Positions 5,182 to 22,095 are shown, numbered from the stretch's first letter. The stretch is DNA of 27,282 nt from an uncultured Caldilineaceae bacterium (GCA_964477335.1 CAYZHI010000001.1:1-27282), one strand, 5' to 3'. The notes: a model not told the origin generated them from the letters alone. Numbers and translations are program-made.

Positions 5182-5212
5182 CCCGCAGTTGTATTTAACA
5201 TGAGCGAAATCA

Positions 5213-6187
5213 TTACCAATTTTTGCGCCAATTGGCCGTAATGATCGACTTATCCTGGGTGACTTCGACCGGCACGGCTTCCGACAACCTGGCTTTGACG
5301 GTTTTGCGGTCATCCGTCTCGACAATGGTTAGGGTCCAGACACATGGCACAGGTTTGGTATCGATGGTAATATCGTAGAAACCGGGAGGCCAATCGCTGC
5401 TCTCTCCATAAGCCCCCCACCCCACCGGGCCAGAGGGATAGGAGATGGTGGCATACGTGCCGCACCTGGCTTCGACAAAGACCCCATTCACGGGGTTACC
5501 GCTGGTATCTTTAATATCACCCAGGAAACGGGTAAGCCCGTAATTAGTGTCGTCGTACCAGCCGGTGGGTTCATACTGGTACTTGGGCTGCTCCGGCTGT
5601 GGGGCTGAACTGCTGCTGGCCGGTTGCGGCTGCGGCTCAGATTGGGCCGCTACCGGAGCAGTCGGAGCCTGGGCTACTGGAACCGCCTCGGTATTGCTGG
5701 CGCGCACAACCGAGTTAGAGACCCAGCCGGTTTCATCGCCGGTCAGGCTGATCTGCCACCAGGAGGCATCGGCATTACGACCGACAATGGGCGCGGCGGT
5801 GTTGGCATTCAGGGCGCCAATTACGGGGTAGTTGAGGCCAGGACCGGAACGGATGTTGACCGTACCGGGGGCTACCAGTTGAGGCTGGGAAGCCGCTTGA
5901 GCCTCAGCCTGGGTCTGGTCTGATTGCGGGATGGGCGGATTGTTAGCTTCAAGGTCAGAGTTGCCAATAACCCGGGTGGCAGTAGCGGTTGGTACCGGTG
6001 TAAAGGGCGTCGGTGTGGGGATGATGATAAAGGGTTGGGCCGGGGCCGGGGTGAAGGTGGGCACCGGGGTGCGGGTGGCATAGGCCAGGTTGAAATCAGT
6101 ATCGAGCAGACGGGTGAATAGCGAAGCAAAGACTAAATAGTTGATCAATATTAGAATTATGGCAAAACTCCAAAATCGAGGTTTCAT
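5213..6187 (-). CDS. Membrane-anchored SH3b-domain protein with Pro/Thr linker and C-terminal beta-sandwich-like domain
   Basis: 324 aa. N-terminal TM, TPVPTFTP/TPTPFTPVPTAT linker, and SH3b VNIRSGPGLNYPVIGAL...IVGRN...WWQI...GWVS. Confidence 0.85.
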   Translation of the reverse strand: MKPRFWSFAIILILINYLVFASLFTRLLDTDFNLAYATRTPVPTFTPAPAQPFIIIPTPTPFTPVPTATATRVIGNSDLEANNPPIPQSDQTQAEAQAASQPQLVAPGTVNIRSGPGLNYPVIGALNANTAAPIVGRNADASWWQISLTGDETGWVSNSVVRASNTEAVPVAQAPTAPVAAQSEPQPQPASSSSAPQPEQPKYQYEPTGWYDDTNYGLTRFLGDIKDTSGNPVNGVFVEARCGTYATISYPSGPVGWGAYGESSDWPPGFYDITIDTKPVPCVWTLTIVETDDRKTVKARLSEAVPVEVTQDKSIITANWRKNW

Positions 6188-6253
6188 CGCTTTACGACTC
6201 CCTCACACCAACCGGTCACCTAACCTACAACGACGATTACGAACGTCAGCTTC

Positions 6254-6283
6254 ATTATACCACGTAACCCCGTCATGATGCAA
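6254..6283 (-). promoter_or_regulatory. Putative sigma-70 promoter of the SH3b gene
   Basis: Minus strand reads TTGCAT-18 nt-TATAAT with an extended -10 (TGgTATAAT). Confidence 0.65.
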
Positions 6284-6332
6284 TATTACGTCAAGTTGAA
6301 TTTTATGTAAACAATTATTTTAAGGTTGAAGC

Positions 6333-7355
6333 ATGGAAGTTTCCGTTATTTGCACGGTTCTCAATGAAGGCCAGAGCATCAACAGATTACTTAGCTCATT
6401 GACTGAACAAAGCCGGCCGGCCGACGAGATTATTTTTGTTGACGGCGGTTCGTCTGACGATACGGTTGCTATTCTGGAGAATTTTGGCCGGGAACATCGT
6501 TTACCGCTACAAGTGATTGTGGCGCCGGGGGCAAATATTAGCCGGGGTCGAAATCTGGCCATTGCAGCCGCGGCCGGTCCGATTATCGCCAGCACGGATG
6601 CCGGGGTGCGGCTGGATAAACATTGGCTGGCAGAGCTGCTGAAACCATTCCAAAACGAGTCGTCCGTCCAGGTGGTCGGCGGCTTTTTTGTGCCGGATCC
6701 GCAAACGGCGTTTGAGGTAGCTATGGGCGCCACCGTTTTACCCCGCGTGTCTGACCTGAACCCGGCCACCTTCTTACCCAGCAGTCGCTCCGTGGCTTTC
6801 CTCAAATCAGCTTGGGATGCAGCCGGCCGTTATCCGGAGTGGTTGGATTATTGTGAAGATCTCATCTTTGATTTTCGGCTGCGCGCTGTTACCGGCCCGT
6901 TTGCATTTGCGCCCGACGCCATCGTCTATTTTCGGCCGCGGAGCAGTCTAGGTGACTTTGTCAAGCAATATTACCGCTATGCCCGTGGAGATGGCAAAGC
7001 GGATCTCTGGCGTAAACGGCACGCCATCCGCTATCTCACCTACCTGGCGGCCTTGCCTTTGTTGTTGATTTTGGGTTTCATTGCTTCGCCGTGGTGGTGG
7101 CTATTTGGAGCCATCCTGGGAGCAGCAGGTTTATTATATACACCGTACCGCCGCTTGCTTGTACTGTGGACATCACTCTCCGGCCTCGGCAAGTTGCAGG
7201 CTATCGCCTGGGTGCCAATTATCAGAGTCAGCGGAGATATCGCTAAAATGATCGGCTATCCGGTAGGATTGAAATGGCGATTAGCTCGTTTAGCTACCCA
7301 ACCGGAACTCCATTGGCGCCAGCAAAGAGCGATTTCCGGCAGCAAATTGAGCTGA
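6333..7355 (+). CDS. Glycosyltransferase family 2 with C-terminal TM segments
   Basis: 340 aa. VICTVLNE, VDGGSSDDT, GRN, TDAG (DxD-like), ED motif (CEDL), QYYRYARGD, and two hydrophobic C-terminal helices. Confidence 0.93.
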   Translation: MEVSVICTVLNEGQSINRLLSSLTEQSRPADEIIFVDGGSSDDTVAILENFGREHRLPLQVIVAPGANISRGRNLAIAAAAGPIIASTDAGVRLDKHWLAELLKPFQNESSVQVVGGFFVPDPQTAFEVAMGATVLPRVSDLNPATFLPSSRSVAFLKSAWDAAGRYPEWLDYCEDLIFDFRLRAVTGPFAFAPDAIVYFRPRSSLGDFVKQYYRYARGDGKADLWRKRHAIRYLTYLAALPLLLILGFIASPWWWLFGAILGAAGLLYTPYRRLLVLWTSLSGLGKLQAIAWVPIIRVSGDIAKMIGYPVGLKWRLARLATQPELHWRQQRAISGSKLS

Positions 7356-7461: not shown

Positions 7462-7491
7462 TTGGCCTAATAATTCAAGTTAAGGTATAAT
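7462..7491 (+). promoter_or_regulatory. Putative sigma-70 promoter of kinase 1
   Basis: TTGGCC-18 nt-TATAAT upstream of the kinase gene. Confidence 0.55.
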
Positions 7492-7570
7492 CCTCGTGAG
7501 CGTATATTTGGGGCACTCTGCTAGTGAAACAACCACACAATTGCCGTACCGGATGGTGCAGGAGTACACC

Positions 7571-10252
7571 TTGATCGGGAAAATCCTTGGCAACCGCTAT
7601 AGAGTTCTCCGCGAAGTTGGCAGCGGGGGCATGGCCTGGGTCTACCTGGCTGAAGATATCAAAGATAATAATTTGGTTGCCGTTAAAGTTTTATACCCCC
7701 AATTTGGTGAAGATTTAGCCTATATTCAGCGTTTCAACCGTGAAGCCAAGCTGGCCAGCATGTTGACCGATCCGCACATCGTCCCCGTTTTAGATTACGG
7801 CGCCGATCGGGATATTCATTACCTGGTTATGGAATTTATTGACGGCAAAGATCTCCGCGAAACGCTGGAGGAAAAGGGGCCATATGCCTGGCGAGAGGCG
7901 CTCGAAATAGTGGATCAGCTGGCCACTGCCCTGGAGCACGCTCATCTTTATGGCATTGTCCACCGAGATATTAAACCCCAAAATATGATGTTGACCGACT
8001 CCGGGCTGCTTAAAGTTCTTGATTTTGGCATTGCCCGGATTCCTACATTGCCCTCATTAACCCAATCTGGTTTTGTGGGTTCACCCTACTATGTTTCACC
8101 GGAGCAAGCTATGGGCGAGGAAATTGATACTCGCTCTGATATCTATTCTTCCGGCATCGTTCTCTATGAATTATTGACCGGTCGAATTCCGTTTGACGCC
8201 AAGAGTCCCTGGTCAATTATCAATCAGCATCTCACCAGCGAACCACCTCCACTTAACCTAACCAACACTGATATTCCGTTAGAAGTTGAACAGTTACTGA
8301 GCCGAATGATCGCTAAGCGACCCGAAGATCGATTTCCCAATCCCAGCGCCTTGCGGCGGGCGCTTAGCGCAGTCTTGGCCGGTGAGCCTATCCCGGATAG
8401 CGCGCTCGACACTCAGCCCATTACACCACCCAATAAACAGGCTATGGCCGATAGTTTTTATCAACGGGCCTTGCGGGCAATGGAAGCTGAGGAGTGGGGT
8501 CGGGCTGCCGACTTGCTGAATCAGGTACTCAGTCTGGTGCCATCCCATAAAGAGGCCTCAGCCAAGCTCATGCTGGCCGACCAGAAGTCTTTTGTAGCGT
8601 CGCTCTTCAACGCCGGCAAACGGGCTTTGAAAAACGAACGGTGGGAAGAAGCCATTAATAGTTTCAACGGCATCCTTGAACTTGAACCAGATCGGTTGGA
8701 GGTTAAGGAGTTGCTGGCTCAGGCTCAGCAAGCTCTGGAAAAGGAAAATGCCGAACAACTCATTATTACACTCTACCACGAAGGCCAGGCTCACCTTGAG
8801 GCGCAACGTTGGGACCTGGCAGTAAAAGCATTTGAAGACGTACAGCGTTTGTCGCCGGATTATAAAGAGGTTGAGCAGTTTCTGGCCGAAGCAAGGCGGA
8901 GGGCCAACCCAACGTTCATCCAAAAAATCGTCTCGATGCGTTATGATAATTGGTGGCGCTGGGGGTTGGTTGCCGCCGGGGTGTTGGTTATCTTTGGGTT
9001 GTTTTTCACGTTTGGCACCGAGAATTCCCCGGTAGCGGGAGACGATAACCTCAGAGAAAAGTTAAAGACACTCTATGCCGACGCTCAGGTGGCAATTCAA
9101 AATGATGACTCAGAACGAGCCATTGCCTTGCTTGACCAAATTTTGGCCGAAGATCCAGACTATGCCAATGCGGCCGACCTGAAGCGAGAGCTAACCATTA
9201 CGCCCACCCCCGCCCCAACCAGCACACCCACCGCCACGCCCGACGCCCTGGCTCCGCTCCTGGCTGAGGCCCAGGCTGCGGTAGAGCTTGGCGATTGGTC
9301 TGCCGCGCTGGAACATTTGGCCGAGATCAAAGAGGCAAATTCAGAATACCAACAAGCTCTGGTCATAGCTCTTTTCTGCGACGCCTCGGTCAATCGCGGG
9401 CTGGAAAAGCTGGCCAACATCGCCCCGGCTGACAACGAGCAAGAAATTGTTCAAGCTGCTTTGGCCGATTTTGAGGCAGGCGCGGCGGCCTGTCCCCGGC
9501 GAACCGATTTACGAGATCAGTTAGATCGCTCAACGGCCTATCTTAAAGCGCTTAATACCCCTACCAACGACTATGACACCTTGATCCAAACGTTAACCCC
9601 TTTGGTCGCCGCCGACCCTGACTTTGCAACTGCAAAAGCCAAAGACCTCTTGTATAACGCTCACCTTAATCGGGGTGATGCTCGCCGTGAAGCCGGGGAC
9701 TTTGTAGGCGCCTTGAGTGATTATGAAACGGCCCTGGCCTTAAGAGTAGCCAACCCTAATGAGGCCCAAACCCATCGAGCTGAACTGCTGCTATCTTTTG
9801 GTCAGCAGGCCAGCGTGGACAGCTTAGCTACTCCACCACCCGCAGTCACTGCGACCAGCACCACCGGTGCAGAGGAGCCAGCCACACCGGAACCGGTTCG
9901 GATAAGATTCGGGCCGCCCCAATTAATCAGCCCGGAAAATGATGCCCTTTTTGCCGGAAAATTTGGCGATGTCTACGTTGAATGGGCGCCGGTTGGTTCT
10001 CTGGCGCCGGATGAATACTACGACCTGACGGTGATGCACATCTACGCTGACGAACCGACCTATTGGGGTACGGCCACTCGAGAAACTCGGCTGAAACTCA
10101 ATCCAGAAGATATCGGCGTGGGCAGGGCCGGTCAGGATCGTTTTTATTGGTGGGTAACTGTGCGTAAGGCCAATACTGCGTCGGCGGCCAACAGTTTGGA
10201 TTTACCGGTAAGCCGCCAGAGTGAAGGTAGAACTTTCGTTTGGGCTCCCTAA
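7571..10252 (+). CDS. Membrane Hanks-type Ser/Thr protein kinase: kinase - TPR-like repeats - TM - TPR-like repeats - Ig/FN3-like domain
   Basis: Intact motifs GSGGMAWVY, VAVK, HRDIKPQN, DFGIA, SPEQ and DIYS. TPR-like helices on both sides of the TM at ~8951-9016. Start placed at TTG 7571 because CAGGAG lies 6 nt upstream (ORF track starts at 7496; ATG 7553 is an alternative). Confidence 0.93.
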   Translation: MIGKILGNRYRVLREVGSGGMAWVYLAEDIKDNNLVAVKVLYPQFGEDLAYIQRFNREAKLASMLTDPHIVPVLDYGADRDIHYLVMEFIDGKDLRETLEEKGPYAWREALEIVDQLATALEHAHLYGIVHRDIKPQNMMLTDSGLLKVLDFGIARIPTLPSLTQSGFVGSPYYVSPEQAMGEEIDTRSDIYSSGIVLYELLTGRIPFDAKSPWSIINQHLTSEPPPLNLTNTDIPLEVEQLLSRMIAKRPEDRFPNPSALRRALSAVLAGEPIPDSALDTQPITPPNKQAMADSFYQRALRAMEAEEWGRAADLLNQVLSLVPSHKEASAKLMLADQKSFVASLFNAGKRALKNERWEEAINSFNGILELEPDRLEVKELLAQAQQALEKENAEQLIITLYHEGQAHLEAQRWDLAVKAFEDVQRLSPDYKEVEQFLAEARRRANPTFIQKIVSMRYDNWWRWGLVAAGVLVIFGLFFTFGTENSPVAGDDNLREKLKTLYADAQVAIQNDDSERAIALLDQILAEDPDYANAADLKRELTITPTPAPTSTPTATPDALAPLLAEAQAAVELGDWSAALEHLAEIKEANSEYQQALVIALFCDASVNRGLEKLANIAPADNEQEIVQAALADFEAGAAACPRRTDLRDQLDRSTAYLKALNTPTNDYDTLIQTLTPLVAADPDFATAKAKDLLYNAHLNRGDARREAGDFVGALSDYETALALRVANPNEAQTHRAELLLSFGQQASVDSLATPPPAVTATSTTGAEEPATPEPVRIRFGPPQLISPENDALFAGKFGDVYVEWAPVGSLAPDEYYDLTVMHIYADEPTYWGTATRETRLKLNPEDIGVGRAGQDRFYWWVTVRKANTASAANSLDLPVSRQSEGRTFVWAP

Positions 10253-10381
10253 ATTTGAACGTTGATGGGGCTACTACCAGCTGAGCAGCCGAGTCTAACA
10301 TTTGATCGTTTACGAAAAAATGCAGCAGTTCTTCCCCAACCAGTAGTCTCTCCATCCTATTGCCCTCACCCGGACCAGCCA

Positions 10382-10390
10382 TGATATAAT
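10382..10390 (+). promoter_or_regulatory. Extended -10 element upstream of the Phd-like/IMPase pair
   Basis: TGaTATAAT about 90 nt before ATG 10481; TTGCCC at 10360 gives a 19-nt spacer. Confidence 0.5.
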
Positions 10391-10480
10391 TGAAATGTCT
10401 CTTGGTTTAACAATTTGCGCGCTTTCTTTTACTCCAAGTAGGCCCTTCAAACTGACTTGAGTGACTGCAGGGTACAGAAG

Positions 10481-10780
10481 ATGGATAAAAAATTCAAACA
10501 AGCGCTCATCGATGAGTTTACCAGAGTTAATACCACCAAAGACCCTGTAATCATCAAACACAGCGGCACGCCCATCGTCCTGCTCTACCCTATTGAAGAG
10601 CCTCAAAAATTCCAGGCTAAACGTGATCAGGAATTCCAACAGTTAAAAACAGAACTAAATCACCTTTTGACTTTTATCCGGTGCCGGATAAAACAGTTGC
10701 CGGAAGAGGTAGAGACCCAACTGGCTACCCATCGACAAAAGATTAAAGAGGCCCTGCAAAAACCTGATGACACCCTTTGA
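10481..10780 (+). CDS. Small protein with a Phd/YefM antitoxin-like N-terminal motif and a helical C-terminus
   Basis: 99 aa from ATG 10481. DPVIIKHSGTPIVLLYPIEE resembles the Phd/YefM pattern (PV.I...G.P..VL.P.E). Overlaps the next gene by 14 nt. Confidence 0.55.
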   Translation: MDKKFKQALIDEFTRVNTTKDPVIIKHSGTPIVLLYPIEEPQKFQAKRDQEFQQLKTELNHLLTFIRCRIKQLPEEVETQLATHRQKIKEALQKPDDTL

Positions 10781-11573
10781 TTACCTGCAAGTACAAAGTT
10801 GGGTTCGAGAAGCCGGACGAATTGCTTTAACTCATTTTCAAACCCAACTACACCGGCAGCAGAAGGCAGATTATAGCCCCGTTACTGAGGCCGACAAGGC
10901 CGTTGAAGATTTCATTATTGGCAAAATCGAACAGACGTACGGATGGCTTGACCACGGTTTCATTGCCGAAGAATCTGGCGGCGATTGGCAAGGCAAGGAG
11001 TTTGTGTGGGCCATTGATCCCATCGATGGCACGCGGGTATTCATCGATGGGTTGCCCTTATGGTGCATTAGCATTGGCCTGCTGCGCCGCGGTGAACCCT
11101 ATCGGGGTGTGGTCTATCTGCCCACCCTTGACGAAATTTATTACACTAACAACGAAGGAATACCTTTTTGGAACGACCGCCCCCTTGCCGGTATGCTTCG
11201 CACCGACTGGAATCGGGACTCGTTTATGTGTGTGCCCTCGACCGTGCATCAACATTTTGAGATCGATTTCCGCCGGCTTCGGGCCCTGGGAGCAATTGCC
11301 ACCCACCATGTTTACGTGGCCAGAGGAGCTACTGCGGCTGCCCTGCATCGCGATGCCAAAATCTGGGATCTGGCGGGCGCCCACGCCATTCTTAGCGCAG
11401 CGGGCGGTGTGGCCAGCTATCTGGATGGCCGGCCATTCTCACTGGCTGAACTCTTAACCAACGAGCAATGGCTCTGTCAACAGCCGATTCTGGTTGGACA
11501 TCCGGTTATGCTGGAAAAATTATTACCCAGAATTAGAGCCTACCCAACCACCACCACAAACTCAGCCCAATAG
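10767..11573 (+). CDS. Inositol monophosphatase family (SuhB/HisN/CysQ superfamily) Mg-dependent phosphatase
   Basis: 268 aa. SPVTEAD, IAEE, WAIDPIDGT and IWDLAGAHAILSAAGG; the metal-binding residues are present. Confidence 0.93.
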   Translation: MTPFDYLQVQSWVREAGRIALTHFQTQLHRQQKADYSPVTEADKAVEDFIIGKIEQTYGWLDHGFIAEESGGDWQGKEFVWAIDPIDGTRVFIDGLPLWCISIGLLRRGEPYRGVVYLPTLDEIYYTNNEGIPFWNDRPLAGMLRTDWNRDSFMCVPSTVHQHFEIDFRRLRALGAIATHHVYVARGATAAALHRDAKIWDLAGAHAILSAAGGVASYLDGRPFSLAELLTNEQWLCQQPILVGHPVMLEKLLPRIRAYPTTTTNSAQ

Positions 11574-11593
11574 GCTTCTGGCCCGTTTTTAGA

Positions 11594-11622
11594 TTGTCAA
11601 AGGCTTTAAAATAGCTTATACT
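11594..11622 (+). promoter_or_regulatory. Sigma-70 promoter of the roadblock pair
   Basis: TTGTCA-17 nt-TATACT, 35 nt before ATG 11658. Confidence 0.7.
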
Positions 11623-11657
11623 TATGCTAGTAACATAATGCAAAGGTTTGAACAGCC

Positions 11658-12074
11658 ATGGCTCAAGTTTACAAAACAGATCTGCTTGAAGGCGCCTTGA
11701 AAGAGCTGTGCAGCAAATTAGAAGGGGTCCAGGGCGCGGTCATCGTGAGTATCGAAGGCTTTGTTGTAGCCGCCTACTCCCCGCTTGAGACTGAAATGGA
11801 CGAAGAAGACAGCCCGACCAGTAGTCCACAAGTAGCCGCAATGGCTGCCACCTTGATTGCCCTGGGCGAACGCACCCTCTCCCGGTTGGCCCAAGGTGAG
11901 ATGATCCGGCTACTAATCGAAGGAAATGACGGCGGTATGTTGGTGGTGCCGGCTAACCGGCGCTCATCTGTAGCCGTGATGGTTGGCAGGGAAGCAAAGA
12001 TGGGGTTGGTACTATACGCCTTGCAACAAAGCGCCAAGAAAATTAGTCATATTCTTGAAGGAAGCGTTAATTGA
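11658..12074 (+). CDS. Roadblock/LC7 domain protein (MglB-like) 1
   Basis: 138 aa. GVQGAVIVSIEGFVVAA...VAAMAATLIALGER...GEMIRLLIEG.DG...AKMGLVLY matches the roadblock fold pattern. Confidence 0.92.
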   Translation: MAQVYKTDLLEGALKELCSKLEGVQGAVIVSIEGFVVAAYSPLETEMDEEDSPTSSPQVAAMAATLIALGERTLSRLAQGEMIRLLIEGNDGGMLVVPANRRSSVAVMVGREAKMGLVLYALQQSAKKISHILEGSVN

Positions 12075-12460
12075 TGACCAATTCAGATCAAATCAAAGAT
12101 AATAGTCAACTCTTGACCGAAATTCTTGACGAATTGACATTTCGCAATCCCAACGTTCTCAGCGCCCTGGTTGTAAGCGACGATGGTTTAAATGTAGCTT
12201 CCGGCCTGCCGCACGATGATGATGATACCATTGCCCTGACTGCTTCTGACCTGATGGATATGGCCGCAGATTTCTGTAAGCGTTTAGAACAGGGCCGGCT
12301 GGTTCGGGTGGTGTTAGAAGGCGAACAACGCACCACGATTGTAGTAAATGCCGGCAGCCGTACTGTTCTGGCGGTGCTGGTTCCGGCCGAAGCCAAATTG
12401 GGCTTGGTAGCGCTCTCGATGCGCCGGGCGGCCGATCAAATCGCCGCGATGTTTGGATAA
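12074..12460 (+). CDS. Roadblock/LC7 domain protein 2 (divergent paralog)
   Basis: 128 aa from ATG 12074, overlapping the upstream stop in TGATG. VLSALVVSDDGLNVASGL...GRLVRVVLEGE...AKLGLV. Confidence 0.92.
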   Translation: MTNSDQIKDNSQLLTEILDELTFRNPNVLSALVVSDDGLNVASGLPHDDDDTIALTASDLMDMAADFCKRLEQGRLVRVVLEGEQRTTIVVNAGSRTVLAVLVPAEAKLGLVALSMRRAADQIAAMFG

Positions 12461-12491
12461 ATTTGCCAGAGCTGTAATTGCGCCTCGAATC

Positions 12492-12529
12492 AAAAAGAGC
12501 TACCCCGTTTAGACAAGGTAGCTCTTTTT
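12492..12529. terminator. Bidirectional intrinsic terminator
   Basis: AAAAAGAGCTACC-12 nt-GGTAGCTCTTTTT between the convergent roadblock 2 and kinase 2 genes; U-tract on both strands. Confidence 0.88.
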
Positions 12530-12547
12530 ATGTAGAAATAGAATTTC

Positions 12548-15067
12548 TTACATACCCCACGACATCCGCTCATTGGTCCATTCACGATCGCCGCCAGCCC
12601 CCCACGGATTGCCTTTGGGAAAGTCAAACAGCTTGGTCACGGCGCCGCCGCCGGTCGAGACCACATACACAGCCCAACCCCCGCCCCGGTCCGAAGCAAA
12701 CGCAACCCACTGGCCATCCGGAGAAATCGTCGGTAAGCCGTCGTTAGAAGTGGGGCTGTTAGAGAGGTTGGTCAATCCCTCACCATTCAGACCCATTACA
12801 TATACTTCCCAATCCCCACTTTCCCTCGAATGCAGGACGACCAGGCTACCCGCCGTATCGGTAGGAGTCAGGCTGGTGCCATCGGCTATCTTGCGGGGTG
12901 TTTCGCCATTGCTGCTGCGTTTGTTAGCCCACGAACCAACGGTAAAAACGCCACAAGATTGACCCCCGGCCCAACTGTTACAACCTTTGTACACAATCTG
13001 GTCGCTCTCAGTCCAGACCGGGTTGCTACCCTGAATTTCACCAACCTGTCCGGCCGGCACCAAAACCCCAAAACGGGCTACATCAATACACGTTTGTTCC
13101 GACTCCTGAGAAGGTGGGATCAAGCCACACTGCACAAAGATATAGGAGTGATAGTTCCCATCAGAACCAATCGCCAATTGTGGATTGTCGTAAGCCAAAC
13201 GATTACCATAAGGGTCATAGGTCGGATGGGAATCGGTCGGTGAGCCACTAACCGCTCTTTCAATGGTCCCGGCGGAGCTTGCTTCAAAAACATTTTCGCC
13301 AAAGCCGCCGCCCTGACCGTTGATGAGTAACTTGGCCCCATCGGGACGAAAATTAGGTTGGCGCGCCCCATCGATCCGGGTAAGTTGTCCACCATCGGGC
13401 ATAGAGACAATGAAAAGATCATACCTGCCACCGCCATTATCGACCGGAAAAGCCAACTTTCCGGAAATAGGTGGTCGTTCGGGTGTTGGGGTGGCCGTAG
13501 GCTCGGCCGGCGGGGCCGGAGTAGGGGTATTGGTGGGTGGACCAGGTGTCGGCGTATCAGTAGGAATGGGCGTGGCCGTAGCTTCTGGTGTTGGCGTTAC
13601 CAGCGCCAGAGCTTCAGCTGTGCTGGCTTCGGCCGTAGCAGTTCGAGCCGTGGCAATCTCAGCCGTGGCCGCTTCAGATGTAGCCAGAAAACTTTGGATG
13701 AGACCCGCCTGCTGTTCAAACTGAGCCGTGGCGGTGTTGGCTATATCAAGCTGAGCCTGGGCGGTCCGGGTGGGAGCAACCACCTCAAGGGCTGCGGCTG
13801 TGCCGGTAGCATTGGCCGCACTCTGGGCCGCTACAGTCTCAGCGGTAGCCGTAGTAGCGGCGTTGTTGGCTGCGGTATTAGTTGCAGCACTAACCGCAGC
13901 AGCCGTTTCTCTTTCCTCAACAGCAGCCGTAGCCGCGGCATCGACCGTGGCCGTAGGCGTTGGCCGGCTCAGGACGAATGCCCCCACTACCCCGGCCACA
14001 ACCAACACCAAGATAATCGCCCCACCAATGGCCAGAGGCAGCACCGGCACGCCCCTGGCCGGAGCTGCAGTGGCTTCAGGAGATAGCACTGTCGCCCCCT
14101 CGCCGGCGCTGCCAAGCGCTGTGGCCGCTTTCTGCCGGCTTCTGAGAGGACCGGTGGGGTGATCAATCTGGTGAATCTTTGGCGGCGGGGCGACCGTTTT
14201 CAGGGGAGTGCTGTGAAGCGTATCGTCGGGGGCCAGGCCAACCGCGTCGCGCAAATCTTTGGCCATTGCTCCGGCACTCTGATAACGGTCATCCGGATTC
14301 TTGCTCATCGCTTTGAGGATGACTTTCTCCACCCCTTCCGGAATGTCTGGATTGATCTTTCGGGGCATCGGTAGTGGTTCACTGATATGCTGCATAATTA
14401 CGGCAAAGGGTGTATCAGCATCGTATGGAACCGTACCGGTAACCATCTCGTAGAGCATCACGCCCAGGGAGTAGATATCGCTGCGCTCATCCCCTCGTTC
14501 ACCCTGACCTTGCTCCGGCGACATATAGGCCGGGGTGCCGGCCAGGGCGCCGGTCTGCGTAAACTGAGTAGCGCCTACAATCCGGGCAATCCCAAAATCG
14601 GTCAGAACGATTTGTCCTTCCTGATTGATCATAACGTTGGCCGGTTTGATATCGCGGTGGACCATGCCGCGGGCATGGGCATAATCAATAGCGCTACACA
14701 ATGCCGTAAAAATTCGGGAGATCTCCTCGTAGGTAAAGGGCTGATTGGCTGCCCGGCGCGCTTTCATTTCCTCCTTCAAAGTCGGGCCGTCGATATACTC
14801 CATCGCCATAAAGTACAGGTCGCCTTCGCGGTCAAAATCAAGCGCCTGCACAATAGCGGGATGGCGTAGTTTACCAATGGCCAGAGCTTCCCGCTCAAAT
14901 CGACCGATGAAATCAGCATCATCGACCAGATGGCTGTGAAGAACTTTGATCCCCACATAGCGATCCAGGCCAGGCTGGTAGGCTTTATAGACTTCAGCCA
15001 TCCCGCCCCGACCTAATCTGGCTACAACTCGATACCGTCCCAGTGTTTTACCAACTAACTCTGCCAT
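12548..15067 (-). CDS. Membrane Hanks-type Ser/Thr protein kinase: kinase - TM - Thr/Ala/Pro-rich stalk - TolB-like (PD40) beta-propeller
   Basis: 839 aa. GRGGMAEVY, VGIK, HRDIKPAN, DFGIA, MSPEQ and DIYSLG. TM at ~13970-14044. Propeller repeats QPNFRPDG, PTISPDGQWVAFASDR at ~12551-13468. Confidence 0.94.
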   Translation of the reverse strand: MAELVGKTLGRYRVVARLGRGGMAEVYKAYQPGLDRYVGIKVLHSHLVDDADFIGRFEREALAIGKLRHPAIVQALDFDREGDLYFMAMEYIDGPTLKEEMKARRAANQPFTYEEISRIFTALCSAIDYAHARGMVHRDIKPANVMINQEGQIVLTDFGIARIVGATQFTQTGALAGTPAYMSPEQGQGERGDERSDIYSLGVMLYEMVTGTVPYDADTPFAVIMQHISEPLPMPRKINPDIPEGVEKVILKAMSKNPDDRYQSAGAMAKDLRDAVGLAPDDTLHSTPLKTVAPPPKIHQIDHPTGPLRSRQKAATALGSAGEGATVLSPEATAAPARGVPVLPLAIGGAIILVLVVAGVVGAFVLSRPTPTATVDAAATAAVEERETAAAVSAATNTAANNAATTATAETVAAQSAANATGTAAALEVVAPTRTAQAQLDIANTATAQFEQQAGLIQSFLATSEAATAEIATARTATAEASTAEALALVTPTPEATATPIPTDTPTPGPPTNTPTPAPPAEPTATPTPERPPISGKLAFPVDNGGGRYDLFIVSMPDGGQLTRIDGARQPNFRPDGAKLLINGQGGGFGENVFEASSAGTIERAVSGSPTDSHPTYDPYGNRLAYDNPQLAIGSDGNYHSYIFVQCGLIPPSQESEQTCIDVARFGVLVPAGQVGEIQGSNPVWTESDQIVYKGCNSWAGGQSCGVFTVGSWANKRSSNGETPRKIADGTSLTPTDTAGSLVVLHSRESGDWEVYVMGLNGEGLTNLSNSPTSNDGLPTISPDGQWVAFASDRGGGWAVYVVSTGGGAVTKLFDFPKGNPWGAGGDREWTNERMSWGM

Positions 15068-15130
15068 AATTTACCTGTTTGGATGTGGTGAAAGTAGTAA
15101 TGAATTGGTATCAATTTTGCCCAAATATAA

Positions 15131-15150
15131 AGGCGAACTATCGTTCGCCT
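15131..15150. repeat. Palindrome AGGCGAAC-N4-GTTCGCCT in the predicted 5' UTR of kinase 2
   Basis: Perfect 8-bp stem between the promoter (15184-15212) and ATG 15067. Confidence 0.7.
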
Positions 15151-15183
15151 CTAATCGTAGAGAGACGCACCACCAACAACTTC

Positions 15184-15212
15184 ATTATAACATTGCCCCT
15201 GTGGTGCGTCAA
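15184..15212 (-). promoter_or_regulatory. Near-consensus sigma-70 promoter of kinase 2
   Basis: Minus strand reads TTGACG-17 nt-TATAAT with an extended -10 TG. Confidence 0.8.
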
Positions 15213-15249
15213 TCAGTCACTTAGAAATTAGCTCCGGCCGATAAGGCTT

Positions 15250-18200
15250 TTAAGGAGCCCAGGAAATTCGTTCTTCCAACCAACCTTTCGAATTGTCGAT
15301 ATCTCGTAAAACTTTGCCATCTGGCGAGCCATTCATATTGAATAGCTTTCTTTGATTACTGCCATCGGCGTTCATCACCCAAACGGCCCATGAGCCGCCT
15401 TGATCTGACACGTAGGCAATACTCTGACCATCGGAAGACCAGGCGGGTAACCCCTCATTACTACCATTATTGGTGAGGCGCTGTGGGCTTGAGCCGTCCG
15501 CATTCATCACCCAAATCTCCCAATTAGTGGCCCCCCGAGCAGATGACATAACGGCAATTTTGCTACCATCCGGTGATACCGCCGGAGCGGTATCGGAAAA
15601 TTCACTGCTGATCTTCCTTTCACCACCGCCGTTGGCCCCCATCACATACAAACCACAGTCACCTGCCGGTGAACAGCCTCTCACCACCAATCGCCCATCA
15701 GGGAAGGTGGCGGGATATTCGCCCTGAAAACCGATGCCATAATCCCCATCGCCTGACTGATTACCAACGAAAATGCGGGGCACCCGATCACCTTCGCGGC
15801 GGCTGGCAAAGGCAAACGAGTAACCATCGGGCGACCAGGTAGGTAGGCCATCTTCCACAAAACGGGTCACCTGCCCTTCGCGGCCGCCGATGAAATCTCG
15901 GAAGAAAATGCCGCGGTTGCCCAAATTCCAGGAGCGATAAGCCAGCAAGCTGCCATCCCGGTTAAAGGCTGGCTGGCTGGCCTCAGTCGCAATAATCGTT
16001 TGTTCGCCGGTGGCAATGTCAGCCATCCAGATATCGTAAACATTGCTGCCAGGATTGAACGCCGGGTAGACAATCCGACCACTCACGGCAGCCGCGTCAC
16101 CTGAAGGCGCAGCCGCTTCAGCAGCCGGCGACGCAGCAACCGGCGCTTCCGCCGTCTCAACCTCGGCCTGAGCCGTGGTAGTAACAGCGCCGGTCGTATC
16201 GGTTGGCTCGGCTGCCGTTGTCTCGGTGGTGGTGGATCCAGCATTATAAGCTTCCAGCTCTTCAGCCGTGAAGGGGATGACCAATTCCTGGCCTAACTGC
16301 AAACTTGTAGGATCGGTAATATTGTTCTTGGAGGTCAACAAGTCGACGTCAACGCCAAATCTGGCGGCTATGGCCAGGAGCGTATCACCTGATTGAATTC
16401 GATAAACCAGCGGCGTGGCCGTGCCCTTGGGAGTAGGTGTAGCTGCCGGGGTCGACCTAGCCTCACCCGTTTTAGCGGGCGTAGGCGTGCTCTTCGAATC
16501 TGCTGCTTCATCTTCTTCGCCTGCAGCCGTGGCCTCAGCGGTCATCGGGGTCGCGGCTTGAGCCGCGGCATCGGTGGAGAAGCTAAAGCTGTTGATCATG
16601 GCTTGAAATTGCGGCTGGACCGCATTCCAGGCCGCAGCCGGGGCCAGGGCCACCAGGTAGTAACCGGCTCCGTCCTTGTTGGTTACAGCCAGGGTAGCAA
16701 TTCCCTGGCCACCCAAATCGTCAGCCTGATACCTGATTTGGGCCGAAGTCCAAATCTGGGAAGCAATACTGATGGTACCTTCATTGAGGGTTTCGGCGTC
16801 GCTTGGAAAATCGGCCAAAACTTCGGTCAATAGATCGGCAATGGCCATCCCTTCATCAGCCGACTTACAGATGATCATGACCGCGTCTTTGGGATTGTCC
16901 AGATCAAGTCCGGCTGAGGAGGGCGAGAACATCCCGCAGAGTTCTTCCTCGGCTTGCTGCCAATTCTCGGGATATTCGACCCGATAGCCCAGGTCGGCGC
17001 TACTGAAGGTAGTCAGAGCAACAGGAGTAGAGGAGACTGCGGCCTCAAGTTCAGGTGTAGCCGTTGGACCAGGAGTGGGCGTGGCATCAGGCGGGCCGGC
17101 ATCAAGGGTAGGGGTAAGGCTGGGCACGGCCACCAACCCGCCGCTGCCCAGGTCATCACTCTGAAACCAACTCCAGGTAAAGATCAACCCAACCGCACAA
17201 GCCAACAAAATGACAACGCCGCCCACAAACGTCCACAAGGTACTGGGGAGTGATCGCAACACGTCACCCACAGTGTAACTTTCCTTCTCTGCTATTTGGG
17301 GCTGGGCGGCAGCGGCTTTACCGACAGCGGCGGCTGAAGTTGCAGCACCGGCTTTTGGCTGGGCCGTTTGTTGGGCCGGCGGCGCGACAGGTCTCACCGG
17401 CGCGGTATCAGCCCGCGCCGCTGCCGCAGCCGGGGTCGGCATCGCCTGGGTCACGCTGCGATGAACTTCGGGCGGGGGTGTAGGTTCCACCCGGCGGACC
17501 GGCTCCATCGGCAACGTGTTTTCGCGAGCTCGACGCTCCTGACCCGGCGCAGGTCTAACCGGCCGGCTGGCTGCTCTGGCCGACGGCGAGCGGGGTGAGG
17601 AGATGTTTGAAGCGGCCGCACCCGTCGGAATGATGATGGTAGGCTCATGCACGGCTTCTCGTTTTCTGGGTGGAACAGTACGATTCGGCTCTGTAACCGG
17701 CCGGCTGCCTCTGGCTACAGGCTGGACCTGGAGCTGCTCCTCCTGGCGTCGCGGCGGCACCTCGACGGGCCGGCTGGCTCGCCGCGGCCGTGGCTCTGCT
17801 GCAGCCGGATGAGAAGTAGATTTTGGCTCAGTAACCGGTTGAGGAGCCGGAGTGGTTGCCTTTGGCTCCGGTTTTGCCTCAGGTTCAGGATCGATGACCG
17901 TAATTACTTCAACATCAACCACCTCAACCGGGGGTTCATCCGCTTCGATAAACTCGGCGACCACCGGCTCACGCTTGGCTTCAGCTTTAGGCTTGGCCGA
18001 TTTTGGCTGCTGTTCGATCACCATTGTGGGTGGAGGCTGCGGACTCTCAACCGGTTCACCCGTGGCGTACTTTAGCCATTGTTGACCATCGAAGTAGAAC
18101 CAACTGCCGGAGTCGGTTGGGTCTTTGGGAGGCATCGGCGGCTGGACAGGCCCGGACTCAGCCGGAGCCGGCTGGTCAAACGTACCGGCTCGAGCCTCAT

Positions 18201-19149
18201 GGGCCGGCGCCCCGGCCTGAGCCTGAGGTTGGGCCTGGCCCGGCATGTCGAACTGGCCAGGTTGAGGCGCTACATAAGGTTGGGCCGGCTGGTAGGGTGG
18301 AGCCGCAGGTTGTTGCGGTTGGCTAAGATTCTGTTGGACATATTGAGCGCTGGCAGCTTGAGTTTCCGGTCCCGGTGAGGTAATGTAAATTTGGATTGGC
18401 TGAGTTGGTGAAGTTGGCTGCTGCGGCTGAATCACATAGCCCTGGTTGGCTGCTGGCGAAGCCGGTTGAGGATAGACGGCTGGCTGGTATGGCGACGTCG
18501 CATAGTTTGGCGCCGCCGATCCACGCTGGGGTTGGTAAGGCTGGGTATAGGGCGCCTGAGCGGAGGAAGCCGGGGTTCGAAATTCATGAGCCGGATGCCA
18601 GCCATTTTGGTCATAGAAATACCATTGGCCGGTTTTCTCACCGATAGCCCAATATCGTCCCTCATCATCCTGGAAAAGTTGGCCGTCAAGCTGGCCCGGC
18701 ATACCAGGCCCGGCATCGTGGCTTTGGGGTTGTAACTGAGCCTGAGCGGGCACATATGCCGTGGTTGGCTGCTGGCGGCCCTGTCCCCGGCCTACAGACG
18801 GCGAGGCGACGGCATCGCCTGCCCCAGGTTTGACCCACTCGCCCGTGTCAGCTTGGTAGTAGTACCAGTCTCCACTTTTGACGCCCCGCTGCCAATAGAT
18901 GCCCTGATCGTCCATAAAGGGCAGCCTGTCGGCCTCGCGGGGGTCGGCCTGTTGCCAGTTCTGGCCATCGTAATAATGCCAACTACCAGACTGAGCGCCG
19001 ATCATCCAATATCGACCCCAGCTATCTTGAAACTGAAGTTTATCTACTTCGGCAATATACCTTGCTTCATCGATCTTTCCGGCCTGAAAATCGCGAGCCA
19101 GAATTCTATAACGCTTCTCAAATCTTATTATTTTTTCTTCAATTTCCAT
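15250..19149 (-). CDS. Large bitopic membrane protein: SHOCT-like helices plus Trp-rich repeats - Pro/Gln/Ala low-complexity region - TM - PsbP/DcrB-like - LysM - TolB-like propeller
   Basis: ~1299 aa from ATG 19149 (GGGA 3 nt upstream; the track starts at TTG 19161). TM at 17164-17238. PsbP-like LGYRVEYPENW...FQAMINSFSF at 16579-17016. LysM YRIQSGDTLLAIAARFGV...LQLGQELVIP at 16273-16404. PD40 repeats (PTWSPDG, PAVSPDG, PAWSSDG) at 15253-16086. Confidence 0.88.
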   Translation of the reverse strand: MEIEEKIIRFEKRYRILARDFQAGKIDEARYIAEVDKLQFQDSWGRYWMIGAQSGSWHYYDGQNWQQADPREADRLPFMDDQGIYWQRGVKSGDWYYYQADTGEWVKPGAGDAVASPSVGRGQGRQQPTTAYVPAQAQLQPQSHDAGPGMPGQLDGQLFQDDEGRYWAIGEKTGQWYFYDQNGWHPAHEFRTPASSAQAPYTQPYQPQRGSAAPNYATSPYQPAVYPQPASPAANQGYVIQPQQPTSPTQPIQIYITSPGPETQAASAQYVQQNLSQPQQPAAPPYQPAQPYVAPQPGQFDMPGQAQPQAQAGAPAHEARAGTFDQPAPAESGPVQPPMPPKDPTDSGSWFYFDGQQWLKYATGEPVESPQPPPTMVIEQQPKSAKPKAEAKREPVVAEFIEADEPPVEVVDVEVITVIDPEPEAKPEPKATTPAPQPVTEPKSTSHPAAAEPRPRRASRPVEVPPRRQEEQLQVQPVARGSRPVTEPNRTVPPRKREAVHEPTIIIPTGAAASNISSPRSPSARAASRPVRPAPGQERRARENTLPMEPVRRVEPTPPPEVHRSVTQAMPTPAAAAARADTAPVRPVAPPAQQTAQPKAGAATSAAAVGKAAAAQPQIAEKESYTVGDVLRSLPSTLWTFVGGVVILLACAVGLIFTWSWFQSDDLGSGGLVAVPSLTPTLDAGPPDATPTPGPTATPELEAAVSSTPVALTTFSSADLGYRVEYPENWQQAEEELCGMFSPSSAGLDLDNPKDAVMIICKSADEGMAIADLLTEVLADFPSDAETLNEGTISIASQIWTSAQIRYQADDLGGQGIATLAVTNKDGAGYYLVALAPAAAWNAVQPQFQAMINSFSFSTDAAAQAATPMTAEATAAGEEDEAADSKSTPTPAKTGEARSTPAATPTPKGTATPLVYRIQSGDTLLAIAARFGVDVDLLTSKNNITDPTSLQLGQELVIPFTAEELEAYNAGSTTTETTAAEPTDTTGAVTTTAQAEVETAEAPVAASPAAEAAAPSGDAAAVSGRIVYPAFNPGSNVYDIWMADIATGEQTIIATEASQPAFNRDGSLLAYRSWNLGNRGIFFRDFIGGREGQVTRFVEDGLPTWSPDGYSFAFASRREGDRVPRIFVGNQSGDGDYGIGFQGEYPATFPDGRLVVRGCSPAGDCGLYVMGANGGGERKISSEFSDTAPAVSPDGSKIAVMSSARGATNWEIWVMNADGSSPQRLTNNGSNEGLPAWSSDGQSIAYVSDQGGSWAVWVMNADGSNQRKLFNMNGSPDGKVLRDIDNSKGWLEERISWAP

Positions 19150-19167: not shown

Positions 19168-19185
19168 GGCGAAGGCAATTTCGCC
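19168..19185. repeat. Palindrome GGCGAA-N6-TTCGCC just upstream of the large LysM/TolB gene
   Basis: Read directly; 18 nt upstream of ATG 19149. Confidence 0.55.
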
Positions 19186-19419: not shown

Positions 19420-21195
19420 ATGAACAAGAAACTTATTTCTATTGGTTTGAGCATTCTATTGCTAGCCACCATTATAATTGGAACAGCTCTCTGGATAAGA
19501 GTCTATTTTGACTCTATCAAAAATTACCGCTCGCCGCTACGCCAGGTTGAATTAGCGCCGCAACCATCGATTTCGCCCGGTCCCACCAACCGGGTGGTGA
19601 TCATCCTCATTAGTGGTTTAGGTTATGATGACACCCTGGCCTTGAACTTGCCCGTGCTGGAGCAGCTCAGGCAGGCCGGCGCGACCGCCGCAATTGAAAG
19701 CATTCCACCCAGCTATGCTCAAACGACCTGGGCTACTTTGATTACCGGCGCCCCCCCCGAAACCAACGACGCCGCCCCGGTGGACCTGCCCCTGGCCGAG
19801 ATACACTCCCTAGAAACCGATACCATCTTTGCCCAAGCCCAGGCAGCCGGTCTAAAAACGGCGCTGCTGGGACTGGCTGCCTGGTCAAAGTTGCTCCCCC
19901 AAGGCCAAATCAATCACAGTTTCTTCGTCAATGAGGCCGGGCCTGCGGCTGATCAGGCCATCTTTGAAGCAGCTTTGCCGCTCATTGAAAATGACCAGGC
20001 CGACCTACTGCTGTTTCATTTTACCCAGGTTGATGAAGCTGCTCAAGCGTCGGGCGGCACGGCCAGCGAAGCTTACCGCCAGGCTGCGGCCCAGGTCGAT
20101 GCTTATCTAAATCAAATCAGCGCCGCGATGGACCTCAATCGCAGTGTTTTGATCGTTTTGTCTGACCACGGTCACATTGCCAAAGGGGGGCACGGGGGCA
20201 ACGAAGTTGAGGTTATCTGGCAGCCCCTGGTCATGATTGGCGAGAACGTTATTCCCGGCAATTACAGTGACGTTTCTCAAACAGACGTGGCTCCGACTAT
20301 CGCCACATTGTTAGGTCTGCCTGTGCCTACTGCCGCCCAGGGGCGAATTCTGTTCGAGCTGTTACATCTGACCCAAGCCGAACGGGCCACGGCGCAGATG
20401 GCGCTTACCCGGCAGCGAGTTGCGCTAACCGAGGCTTACTTGAGTCAAATTGGCGGGCCTGAGTCGAAATTGCCGGAACAGTTGTTGGCCGACCTCGACC
20501 GGGCTCAGGGCGCGCTGGAAAAAAATAACTTGGGGGGGGCATTCCAACTGGCTGGCTTAGCCCAAACGGAGGCCGACGCCCAAATGGCTGCGGCTCGCCA
20601 CAAGCGCTTGAGTACTGAACAGTTCAGAAGGTTCATTGGGGCTAGTCTCATCGCCCTGCTCTGGTTTGTAACCATGTGGCACCGCCGCGGCTTCCACGCC
20701 GGCTTAATTGTGATTGCCGCCCTTCTGACCGTGGCCTTGTACCATACGCTTTACCAGATACAGGGCTACAGTTACTCCCTCAGCTCGGTGAAACCATTGA
20801 CCGAACTCCCCCTTGAGATTGCCCGTCGAACGGCCGTCAGTCTGCTGGTTGGTGGGGGGGTGGTGCTGGTGGTGCTGATGCTGGTCAAAGAGGATAACTG
20901 GCTCACCTTGCTCGGTAGTGGTTATGGCTTTGGGTTGCTGGTTACCTTTATCTTTGCGTTGCCGCTCTTGTGGGCTTTTTGGCAGAACGGTTTTGTGGTC
21001 ACCTGGCATCTACCCGGGGTATTGCCGGCCTTTTGGCAGCTAACGGCGCTTTTTGAAGTTTTGGCGTCGGCCATTTTGGCCCTGCTACTACCCTGGCCGA
21101 TTATGATGTTGAACCTATTCGTCAGCCTGACTCGCCATTACCTCAGCGGGACCCGCTCGCAAAAGTCCGATGTTCTGCCGGGATTACATTTGTGA
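19420..21195 (+). CDS. Alkaline phosphatase/NPP superfamily membrane protein with degenerate metal ligands and C-terminal TM bundle
   Basis: 591 aa. N-terminal TM, RVVIILISGLGYD, TWATLITG, LSDHGH, GGHG, QTDVAPTIATLLGLPVP..AQGR, and ~5-6 C-terminal TM helices. Confidence 0.85.
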   Translation: MNKKLISIGLSILLLATIIIGTALWIRVYFDSIKNYRSPLRQVELAPQPSISPGPTNRVVIILISGLGYDDTLALNLPVLEQLRQAGATAAIESIPPSYAQTTWATLITGAPPETNDAAPVDLPLAEIHSLETDTIFAQAQAAGLKTALLGLAAWSKLLPQGQINHSFFVNEAGPAADQAIFEAALPLIENDQADLLLFHFTQVDEAAQASGGTASEAYRQAAAQVDAYLNQISAAMDLNRSVLIVLSDHGHIAKGGHGGNEVEVIWQPLVMIGENVIPGNYSDVSQTDVAPTIATLLGLPVPTAAQGRILFELLHLTQAERATAQMALTRQRVALTEAYLSQIGGPESKLPEQLLADLDRAQGALEKNNLGGAFQLAGLAQTEADAQMAAARHKRLSTEQFRRFIGASLIALLWFVTMWHRRGFHAGLIVIAALLTVALYHTLYQIQGYSYSLSSVKPLTELPLEIARRTAVSLLVGGGVVLVVLMLVKEDNWLTLLGSGYGFGLLVTFIFALPLLWAFWQNGFVVTWHLPGVLPAFWQLTALFEVLASAILALLLPWPIMMLNLFVSLTRHYLSGTRSQKSDVLPGLHL

Positions 21196-21252: not shown

Positions 21253-22095
21253 ATGCGGATTATCATCACCGGCGCCAACGGCCAGTTGGGCCAGGCCCTG
21301 CAAAACCAGTTGGCCGAACACGATGTCATCCCCACGGATATTCCCGAATTTGACATTACCGATCATGCCATCGTCCAGCGATTTGCCCAGATGCGGCCCG
21401 AGCTGATCATCCACTGCGCCGCTATGACCGACGTGGACGGCTGCGCCAGAGACCCCGATACGGCCTTCAAGATCAATGCCTTTGGCACGCAAAACGTCGC
21501 CCACGCCTGCCTGCAGACCAACGCCGAGATGGTCTATATCTCCACCAACGAGGTCTTTGACGGCCGGGCTGACATCCCCTACCGGGAGGAAGATCACCCC
21601 AGCCCCATCAATGCTTACGGCAGTTCCAAAAGATCGGGCGAACAGATGGCGGCTCGCTACGTGAAAGACAGGCTCTACATTGTCCGCACCGCCTGGCTAT
21701 ATGGCGACAACGAGCGCATGTTTCCAGGCAAAATCATCGCCGCGGCCGACCAACACGCCGAGCTGCGCGTGGTCACCGACGAGGTGAGCAATCCCACCTA
21801 TGCGCCCGACCTGGCTGAGGCTGTGGCCAAATTGATCCAAAGCCGGGCTTACGGCATCTATCATTTTACCAATTCAGGCTATTGTTCCCGCTATGAATTT
21901 GCCCAGGAGATTCTGCGCCTGGCCAGCCGGGCGCATGTGCCGGTCCAGCCCATCACCCTGGCCGATTACCCGCGGGCGACCACAGTGCCTCATTTCACCG
22001 CCCTGGCCAATACCAAGGGCGCGGCGTTGGGGATTGAGTTGCGACCCTGGCAGGCGGCGTTGGCGGCGTATTTTGGGGTTCGGGTAGGGAAATAG
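21253..22095 (+). CDS. rfbD: dTDP-4-dehydrorhamnose reductase (RmlD family)
   Basis: 280 aa. GANGQLG, IHCAAMTDVDGC, YIST, YGSSK (YxxxK), RTAWLYG, VVTDEVSNPTY and GIYHFTN. RBS GAGGTGGAG. Confidence 0.9.
   Translation: MRIIITGANGQLGQALQNQLAEHDVIPTDIPEFDITDHAIVQRFAQMRPELIIHCAAMTDVDGCARDPDTAFKINAFGTQNVAHACLQTNAEMVYISTNEVFDGRADIPYREEDHPSPINAYGSSKRSGEQMAARYVKDRLYIVRTAWLYGDNERMFPGKIIAAADQHAELRVVTDEVSNPTYAPDLAEAVAKLIQSRAYGIYHFTNSGYCSRYEFAQEILRLASRAHVPVQPITLADYPRATTVPHFTALANTKGAALGIELRPWQAALAAYFGVRVGK

Follow-up and report, generated by a model that had tools for sequence, protein, structure and literature searches.

Seven consecutive genes in a 27,282-nt stretch of DNA from an uncultured Caldilineaceae bacterium (GCA_964477335.1 CAYZHI010000001.1:1-27282; the window, whose numbering is used for all coordinates unless another locus is named) belong to a conserved gene neighbourhood in which two small roadblock proteins are encoded between two receptor-type Ser/Thr kinases. 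The genes are called A to G here: A and F encode the kinases, B a small protein, C a phosphatase of the IMPase family, D and E the roadblock proteins Robl1 and Robl2, and G a kinase-less membrane protein with a LysM domain. As the order of the genes is conserved across many genomes, their clustering exceeds chance, and the neighbourhood is real and conserved. We read it, with middling confidence, as a clade-specific, vertically conserved envelope-sensing neighbourhood in which a Robl1-Robl2 heterodimer that lacks a neighbouring GTPase gene may act as a cytoplasmic adaptor; the genes do not form one operon. While all component families are known, their arrangement, with an orphan Robl pair flanked by receptor Hanks kinases and a LysM partner, appears to be undescribed.

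Conservation and layout of the neighbourhood

Related loci were collected from three anchors. A scan of contigs, one genome per species, with a Robl2 profile yielded 17 loci, which were analyzed with a flank of ±10 kb by tblastn and mapping of open reading frames (ORFs). The conserved N-terminus of G, scanned against metagenome contigs, gave 16 further loci, and IMPase orthologues led to L042 and L043. In essentially all of the 17 Robl2 loci the order was (GH5-PMT_2-SH3)-GT2-A-(B)-(C)-Robl1-Robl2 >< F-G <> AP-RmlD, where >< marks convergent and <> divergent neighbours, GT2 is a glycosyltransferase, AP a membrane protein of the alkaline-phosphatase superfamily, and RmlD a dTDP-4-dehydrorhamnose reductase. 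Every G-anchored contig that was long enough carried RmlD-AP<>G-F, and the three longest extended to Robl2-Robl1-(C)-(B)-A. The same block was present in L042 and L043 and in L023-L025, which came from a further look-up. The synteny check that the initial annotation had proposed thus found the order held well beyond this strain, across some 20 distinct lineages within a single Anaerolineae clade, reached from three independent anchors.

In the Robl2-anchored loci, identity to the window proteins was 49-86% for A, 59-87% for F, 47-84% for G, 64-94% for RmlD, 61-93% for Robl2, and 80-96% for Robl1, and the GC content of the loci ranged from 0.49 to 0.58. Given these low protein identities and the spread in GC, the loci represent several genera rather than strains of one species. 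Homologues of Robl2 were labelled Anaerolineae, Chloroflexota or 'Caldilineaceae', and the DNA runs that best covered the window were hot-spring metagenomes. A filamentous habit of these organisms is something we infer from Anaerolineae taxonomy only.

The seven genes had been delimited as a natural unit, but this could not be upheld: GT2 and AP-RmlD were as conserved as the core, while B and the IMPase gene were variable. The conserved block is larger and reads GT2 - A - Robl1/Robl2 >< F - G <> AP - RmlD, set amid genes for envelope glycans and extracytoplasmic glycoproteins. GT2 lies directly upstream of A in nearly all loci, the exception being L013 with an insert of 3.9 kb; the AP gene adjoins G in every locus that reaches that far, and RmlD follows AP in all loci. 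The right edge of the block is set at RmlD, since L002, L007, L015, and L023 each continue with different genes; on the left, the flank is variable in L005, L013, L015, L016, and L023.

Within the window, the ORF listing together with Pfam and NCBIfam scans of the listed ORFs recovered all seven genes that had been claimed. The features are as follows.

597-673, minus strand: tRNA-Val, anticodon TAC, upstream of the GH5 gene
Within 807-7355: GH5, a PMT_2-type GT-C transferase, an SH3 membrane protein, then GT2
6333-7355, plus strand: GT2 glycosyltransferase with a C-terminal transmembrane (TM) segment (Pfam Glycos_transf_2, E 2e-20)
7462-7491, plus strand: promoter-like site before A (TTGGCC-18-TATAAT, 10/12 matches)
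7496-10252, plus strand: A, receptor Hanks Ser/Thr kinase (Pkinase, E 4e-50; TPR_2, E 1.5e-15)
10481-10780, plus strand: B, small protein of 99 aa (PhdYeFM, E 2.5e-3, below cutoff)
10767-11573, plus strand: C, IMPase-family phosphatase (Inositol_P, E 2e-42)
11594-11622, plus strand: promoter-like site before Robl1 (TTGTCA-17-TATACT, 10/12 matches)
11658-12074, plus strand: D, Robl1 (Robl_LC7, E 4e-11)
12074-12460, plus strand: E, Robl2 (Robl_LC7, E 2e-15)
12493-12530, both strands: bidirectional intrinsic terminator (13-bp stem, A5 and T5 flanks)
12548-15067, minus strand: F, receptor Hanks Ser/Thr kinase (Pkinase, E 2e-47; PD40, E 3e-10)
15184-15212, minus strand: promoter-like site before F (TTGACG-17-TATAAT plus TG, 11/12 matches)
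15250-19149, minus strand: G, kinase-less membrane protein (LysM, E 2e-12; PD40, E 2e-28; PsbP, E 2e-4)
19420-21195, plus strand: AP, alkaline-phosphatase-superfamily membrane protein (Phosphodiest, E 9e-15), divergent from G
21253-22095, plus strand: RmlD, dTDP-4-dehydrorhamnose reductase (RmlD_sub_bind, E 1e-82)

The two arms were said to converge on one bidirectional terminator, and a strong hairpin was indeed found between Robl2 and F. Its sequence, AAAAAGAGCTACC-N12-GGTAGCTCTTTTT, separates the two convergent genes and folds with -26.3 kcal/mol (z = -3.9); an equivalent hairpin with A-run, stem, and T-run stood at the same position in 14 of the 18 loci examined, with differing stem sequences. 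The total of promoter-like sites in the window was not above the shuffled expectation. With genes on two strands, a terminator acting in both directions, and A, Robl1, and F each preceded by a promoter-like site, the block comprises at least five transcription units and hence no single operon. As had been noted from the sequence, the sizeable ORFs of the window yielded no two-component, FHA, or PP2C genes, and domain scans of these ORFs detected no GTPase domain either.

F and G are each preceded by a copy of the palindrome GGCGAA-N6-TTCGCC (15132-15149 and 19168-19185). It was rejected as a conserved operator: the window holds two exact copies, they are not enriched against shuffles at 2 mismatches, and the motif recurs only in the closest relative, L001. 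Because of this restricted recurrence and the lack of enrichment, the palindrome is probably a strain-level feature. In the left flanks of other loci we observed an NERD+FHA protein upstream of PMT_2 (L007, 66-1211), and a GAF histidine kinase, a PALP-receiver fusion, and a single receiver upstream of GT2 (L015, 22-4200); the ORFs at 39-3654 of L016 match those of L015 in size and order.

The roadblock pair and its history

Robl1 and Robl2 are translationally coupled, the stop codon of Robl1 overlapping the ATG of Robl2 (TGATG), and their products probably form a heterodimer; the two paralogues share about 30% identity. Of all proteins in the block, Robl1 is conserved best, with an identity of 80-96% within the clade and 64-73% in sister clades. 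The database product of Robl2 has 128 aa and starts at ATG 12074; the ORF form of 129 aa has no exact protein match. The Robl2 family is tight: from 1.84 billion cluster representatives, one matched at E 3e-57 and the next at 2e-26. An acidic loop in Robl1 (11781-11828) ends in SSPQ, which is invariant over both clades (18 sequences) and is preceded by (P/T/A)(T/A), and the helix after it, AAMAATLIALGERTL, is likewise invariant. Loop and helix together are a candidate phospho-site or interaction surface.

Matches to roadblock proteins in the PDB had E-values from 7e-10 to 1.5e-19. Among solved structures, uncharacterised roadblock proteins and CvnB5 (E 5e-10) come nearest, and structures of MglB were reached weakly by the Robl2-family profile (E ~6e-4). 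No GTPase gene was found within ±10 kb in about 30 loci, including annotated loci and scanned variable flanks. MglB homologues have been called coupled when a gene for an MglA-type small GTPase lies within about four genes (PMC4316618), and by this definition the Robl1-Robl2 pair is an 'orphan' MglB-like pair. In that survey, 328 of the 749 MglB homologues were orphan, that is, not coupled to a nearby mglA, none of them had been experimentally characterised as of 2014, and MglA groups 1 and 5 occurred in Chloroflexi (PMC4316618).

These data bear on an alternative in which the Robl pair would be an MglB/MglC-like regulator (a GTPase-activating protein) of an unlinked MglA-type GTPase, with the kinases feeding in, and would position the growth or motility machinery in the filament. 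The presence of the roadblock fold, the weak match to MglB, the frequency of orphan homologues, and the MglA groups in Chloroflexi all agree with such a module, and in Myxococcus the masABK operon adjoins mgl and interacts with it genetically (PMC3546991). Nevertheless, the roughly 30 loci are devoid of a GTPase gene, and the nearest solved relatives are not MglB, and we consider a polarity module of this kind unlikely. The initial annotation had proposed an envelope-sensing or polarity pathway. Its first half fits the LysM, PD40, and TPR ectodomains and the GT2, PMT_2/GT-C, AP, RmlD, and GH5 genes in the conserved flanks, while polarity has as its one basis the analogy between roadblock proteins and MglB, with no GTPase in any locus.

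The described orphan MglB-like pairs (MglB/MglC of Myxococcus; PMC4316618) resemble the pair studied here in having two tandem small Roadblock/LC7 paralogues and no GTPase gene within four genes; here, however, two receptor Ser/Thr kinases flank the pair in one clade, an IMPase gene often precedes it, and the similarity to MglB is marginal. In masABK-mglBA of Myxococcus xanthus a Hanks-type kinase operon also stands next to a roadblock gene, mglB (PMC3546991). There, the GTPase MglA is the partner of the kinase, whereas our loci contain no GTPase and the kinases are of the receptor type with large ectodomains. The actinobacterial conservon (CvnA-D) likewise has a roadblock protein, and CvnB5 is among the nearest solved relatives, but the histidine-kinase-like CvnA, CvnC (DUF742), and the GTPase CvnD are all missing from the window, in which only the roadblock genes are present.

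Five sister-clade loci (L018-L022) were reached via the family of the second-best Robl2 cluster hit. They keep the overlapping Robl1-Robl2 pair, with an identity of 38-46% for Robl2 next to the value for Robl1 given above, and the neighbours of the pair are secreted FG-GAP-like and HExxH metalloprotease-like proteins. In L020 the order is IMPase-Robl1-Robl2 with a gap of 20 nt, and the IMPase is 48% identical to that of the window. In a tree of Robl1 and Robl2, L020 is the nearest outgroup, and a stem of 0.73 leads to exactly the kinase-bearing clade. The Robl1-Robl2 pair is the oldest unit of the block, and the tree suggests that the kinases joined it on the long stem of this clade. The secreted neighbours, encoded at 7537-9255 in L018, 7305-8735 and 10019-12013 in L019, 8418-10403 in L020, 140-955 and 1979-3949 in L021, and 1536-3215 in L022, all end in a short (I/L/T)YLP(x)3-6 motif, possibly a sorting or anchoring signal specific to Chloroflexota.

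The translation of the IMPase gene contains the metal and substrate motifs of the family as AEESG, WAIDPIDGT, and IWDLAGA, and the protein reaches no NCBIfam equivalog cutoff (best HisN, 130 bits against 275). An IMPase gene occupies this position in a minority of loci, namely the window, L001, L015, L016, L028, L038, L042/L043, and the sister-clade locus L020. Members of its orthogroup (at least 56% identity) are often on the same contigs as Robl2 orthologues, and the next IMPase group (about 45% identity) stands in an inositol-catabolism context. A late accessory insertion of the IMPase gene was rejected in view of the IMPase-Robl1-Robl2 order in the outgroup L020 and the presence of IMPase on the tree. 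Since L020 is the nearest outgroup with an IMPase gene, and since loci with this gene are spread over several basal lineages while two subclades are without it, the distribution suggests that the IMPase gene is an older neighbour of the Robl pair that was lost repeatedly. In L044 (3556-6219), an IMPase orthologue with 58% identity immediately precedes a gene for a multi-TM GT-C-like protein of 887 aa, and roadblock genes are missing from its surroundings; from this context, the IMPase subfamily may have a role in making envelope lipids or glycans.

Receptor kinases, protein G, and protein B

Kinase A, 918 aa as the listed ORF, consists of the kinase domain, a cytoplasmic TPR region, a TM segment (490-508), an extracytoplasmic TPR-like region, and a C-terminal domain; its true start is probably ATG 7553, or TTG 7571 with AGGAG 7 nt upstream. 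In F, the kinase domain is followed by a TM segment (347-365), an Ala/Thr/Pro-rich linker, and a PD40 (TolB-like) propeller. Each of the two proteins has a single predicted TM segment. The catalytic motifs are VAVK61, HRDIKPQN156, DFG176, and SPE201 in A and VGIK38, HRDIKPAN137, DFG157, and SPE183 in F. As the Lys, HRD, DFG, and SPE motifs are all kept, A and F are predicted to be catalytically competent Hanks kinases. The NCBIfam model PknB_PASTA_kin scored 349 and 382 bits for the two kinases at a cutoff of 450, with matches (residues 27-306 of A and 10-452 of F) that mainly cover the kinase part, and PASTA repeats had no match in either A or F. To our knowledge, the receptor Ser/Thr kinases of Chloroflexota are essentially unstudied.

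Protein G has no kinase domain. Its cytoplasmic part is made up of a helix at the N-terminus, three Trp-rich beta-meander repeats, and a Pro/Ala/Gln-rich region of about 450 aa; after the TM segment (642-660) follow, outside, a weakly matched PsbP-like domain, LysM, and a PD40 propeller, so that LysM and PD40 lie on the extracytoplasmic side in the predicted topology. This propeller is a paralogue of the one in F (29% identity, E 3e-24). The N-terminal repeats of G are nearly invariant in 13 genomes. They matched Pfam WW at E 0.03 and Choline_bind_3 at E 3.5e-5, each below cutoff, and in the AlphaFold2 (AF2) model they appear as three repeats of 3-4-strand meanders, for which Foldseek returned no PDB hit at E <= 1e-3. 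Among the folds named by the initial annotation, TPR, IMPase, roadblock, propeller, and LysM were matched significantly by Pfam, while the Phd-like (B) and WW-like (G) labels correspond to sub-threshold matches only.

A, F, and G all end in a conserved Trp motif (10200-10252, 12548-12610, and 15250-15310). The end of G is ...GWLEERISWAP, invariant in 14 genomes, that of F is ...NER(M/I)SW(G/A)(P/x), and that of A is ...RTF(V/I)WxP, with FVWAP in the window. The end shared by F and G, ER(I/M)SW(A/G)P, fits their paralogous propellers. All three proteins also carry Thr/Pro-rich extracytoplasmic linkers, which could be substrates of O-glycosylation. In one metagenome locus (L034, 4274-10199), two tandem F-type kinases follow G, a local duplication.

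With the wall- or envelope-sensing receptor kinases PknB/Stk1 (PASTA) and PknD of M. tuberculosis the two kinases share an active kinase domain at the N-terminus, one TM segment, and a sensor outside the membrane, and the propeller of F recalls that of PknD. They differ in that PASTA is missing here, the propeller of F is PD40/TolB-like instead of NHL, and the window has no PP2C or FHA partner. As an analogy only, the juxtaposition of kinase F with the kinase-less LysM protein G, which carries a paralogous sensor, resembles the plant LysM receptor kinase pairs (CERK1 with kinase-less LysM partners). Only LysM itself is homologous between the two systems; here it is joined to a propeller in G, and F is without LysM.

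In its AF2 model (predicted local distance difference test score, pLDDT, 78.6), protein B has a hairpin resembling that of Phd/YefM at its N-terminus and a single long helix. It scored 18 bits against PhdYeFM, below the cutoff of 29.8 (E 2.5e-3), and its best Foldseek hits were Phd antitoxins, with 2odk at the top (prob 0.82 over 41 columns, not significant at E 0.24). The B gene and the start of the IMPase gene overlap by 14 nt. Orthologues of B with 26-65% identity were present in about 12 loci and missing from at least seven. A toxin gene of the Doc/YoeB/RelE type was not found directly after B, where every locus has IMPase or Robl1 instead. We rejected a role of the locus as a toxin-antitoxin system or in phage defence, as there is no toxin gene and the matches of the kinases to defence-kinase models are far below the cutoffs.

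Functional coupling, inherited synteny, and proposed mechanism

Several observations weigh against a functional link between the kinases and the Robl pair. The neighbourhood is split into at least five transcription units, and a conserved terminator divides its arms. Each junction of the block is broken in at least one locus: between A and Robl1 in L009, where a LacI-family gene is in place of A; between Robl2 and F in L006, where DJ-1, DnaK, and other housekeeping genes come after Robl2; and between F and G in L014, where an integrase follows F. In L018-L022, no kinase, G, GT2, AP, or RmlD gene was found near the Robl pair; since there are no kinases beside the pair outside the clade, the kinase-roadblock link is lineage-specific and its function unproven. 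None of ten long roadblock proteins that were checked contained a kinase domain; they were fusions with AAA_22/STAND-ATPase or DUF4388, and one was without a domain beyond roadblock. Chloroflexota are rich in Hanks kinases, which makes an accidental adjacency likelier. The evidence for expression is limited to two short RNA contigs: one metatranscriptome run gave a contig of 237 nt on 11812-12042 (Robl1) with 1 mismatch, and a contig of 151 nt covers the N-terminus of G.

Much of this would also be expected from inherited synteny without functional coupling, where independent modules (A; IMPase with the Robl pair; F-G with AP/RmlD and GT2/PMT_2) stay together through kinship and rare rearrangement. 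The separate promoter-like sites and the conserved terminator between the arms speak for such modules, and so do the breakpoints in L006, L009, and L014, which fall exactly on unit borders, the entirely different neighbours of the Robl pair in the sister clades, and the lack of a kinase-roadblock fusion among the fusions checked. The left flank GH5-PMT2-SH3 is largely collinear as well, suggesting that synteny is generally good across the clade. However, the order is kept although the faster-evolving members are only about 50-60% identical, the core persists in several genomes despite reshuffled flanks beyond GT2 and RmlD, and there were just three breaks in about 65 junction observations. We regard inherited synteny alone as a serious possibility of clearly less than even probability.

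For the envelope-sensing neighbourhood that we favour, we infer every protein-protein interaction and every output of the following mechanism from gene content, domains, motifs, predicted topology, gene order, and the terminator as described above. The ectodomains of A, and of F together with G, would sense the condition of the wall or of the glycan layer, G being a kinase-less paralogue of the sensor of F that would add a LysM module for peptidoglycan binding. The kinases would autophosphorylate and then phosphorylate cytoplasmic targets. The Robl heterodimer, as an older unit that once would have travelled with the IMPase gene, may serve as the cytoplasmic adaptor or platform and could couple the output of the kinases to envelope synthesis, either directly or via a small GTPase encoded elsewhere.

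Purely by way of analogy, this arrangement can be compared with the eukaryotic roadblock heterodimer MP1-p14 (LAMTOR3/LAMTOR2), which scaffolds MEK1-ERK (PMC2064696, PMC5696360). Two roadblock paralogues and Ser/Thr kinases at a membrane are common to both, known here from the genes alone; the eukaryotic complex, in contrast, also uses Rag GTPases and the p18 anchor. In the most specific form of the proposal, the locus would encode a GTPase-independent counterpart of MP1-p14: the Robl dimer would bind to A through its cytoplasmic TPR region and to G through its Trp-repeat and Pro-rich region, would receive phosphate in the invariant acidic T-S-S-P-Q loop of Robl1, and would bring the two kinases and the LysM co-receptor together in one membrane signalling complex that directs envelope glycan synthesis in filamentous Chloroflexota. 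Taken with all its details, we consider this version improbable.

The locus provides a concrete, conserved test case, in which a very conserved Robl pair is held between two receptor kinases and a LysM partner within an envelope-glycan cluster. Should the link prove non-functional, the neighbourhood would still be a well-defined marker of its clade. If it is functional, it would represent a bacterial roadblock platform that works with kinases, and a pointer to how monoderm filamentous Chloroflexota may monitor their wall.

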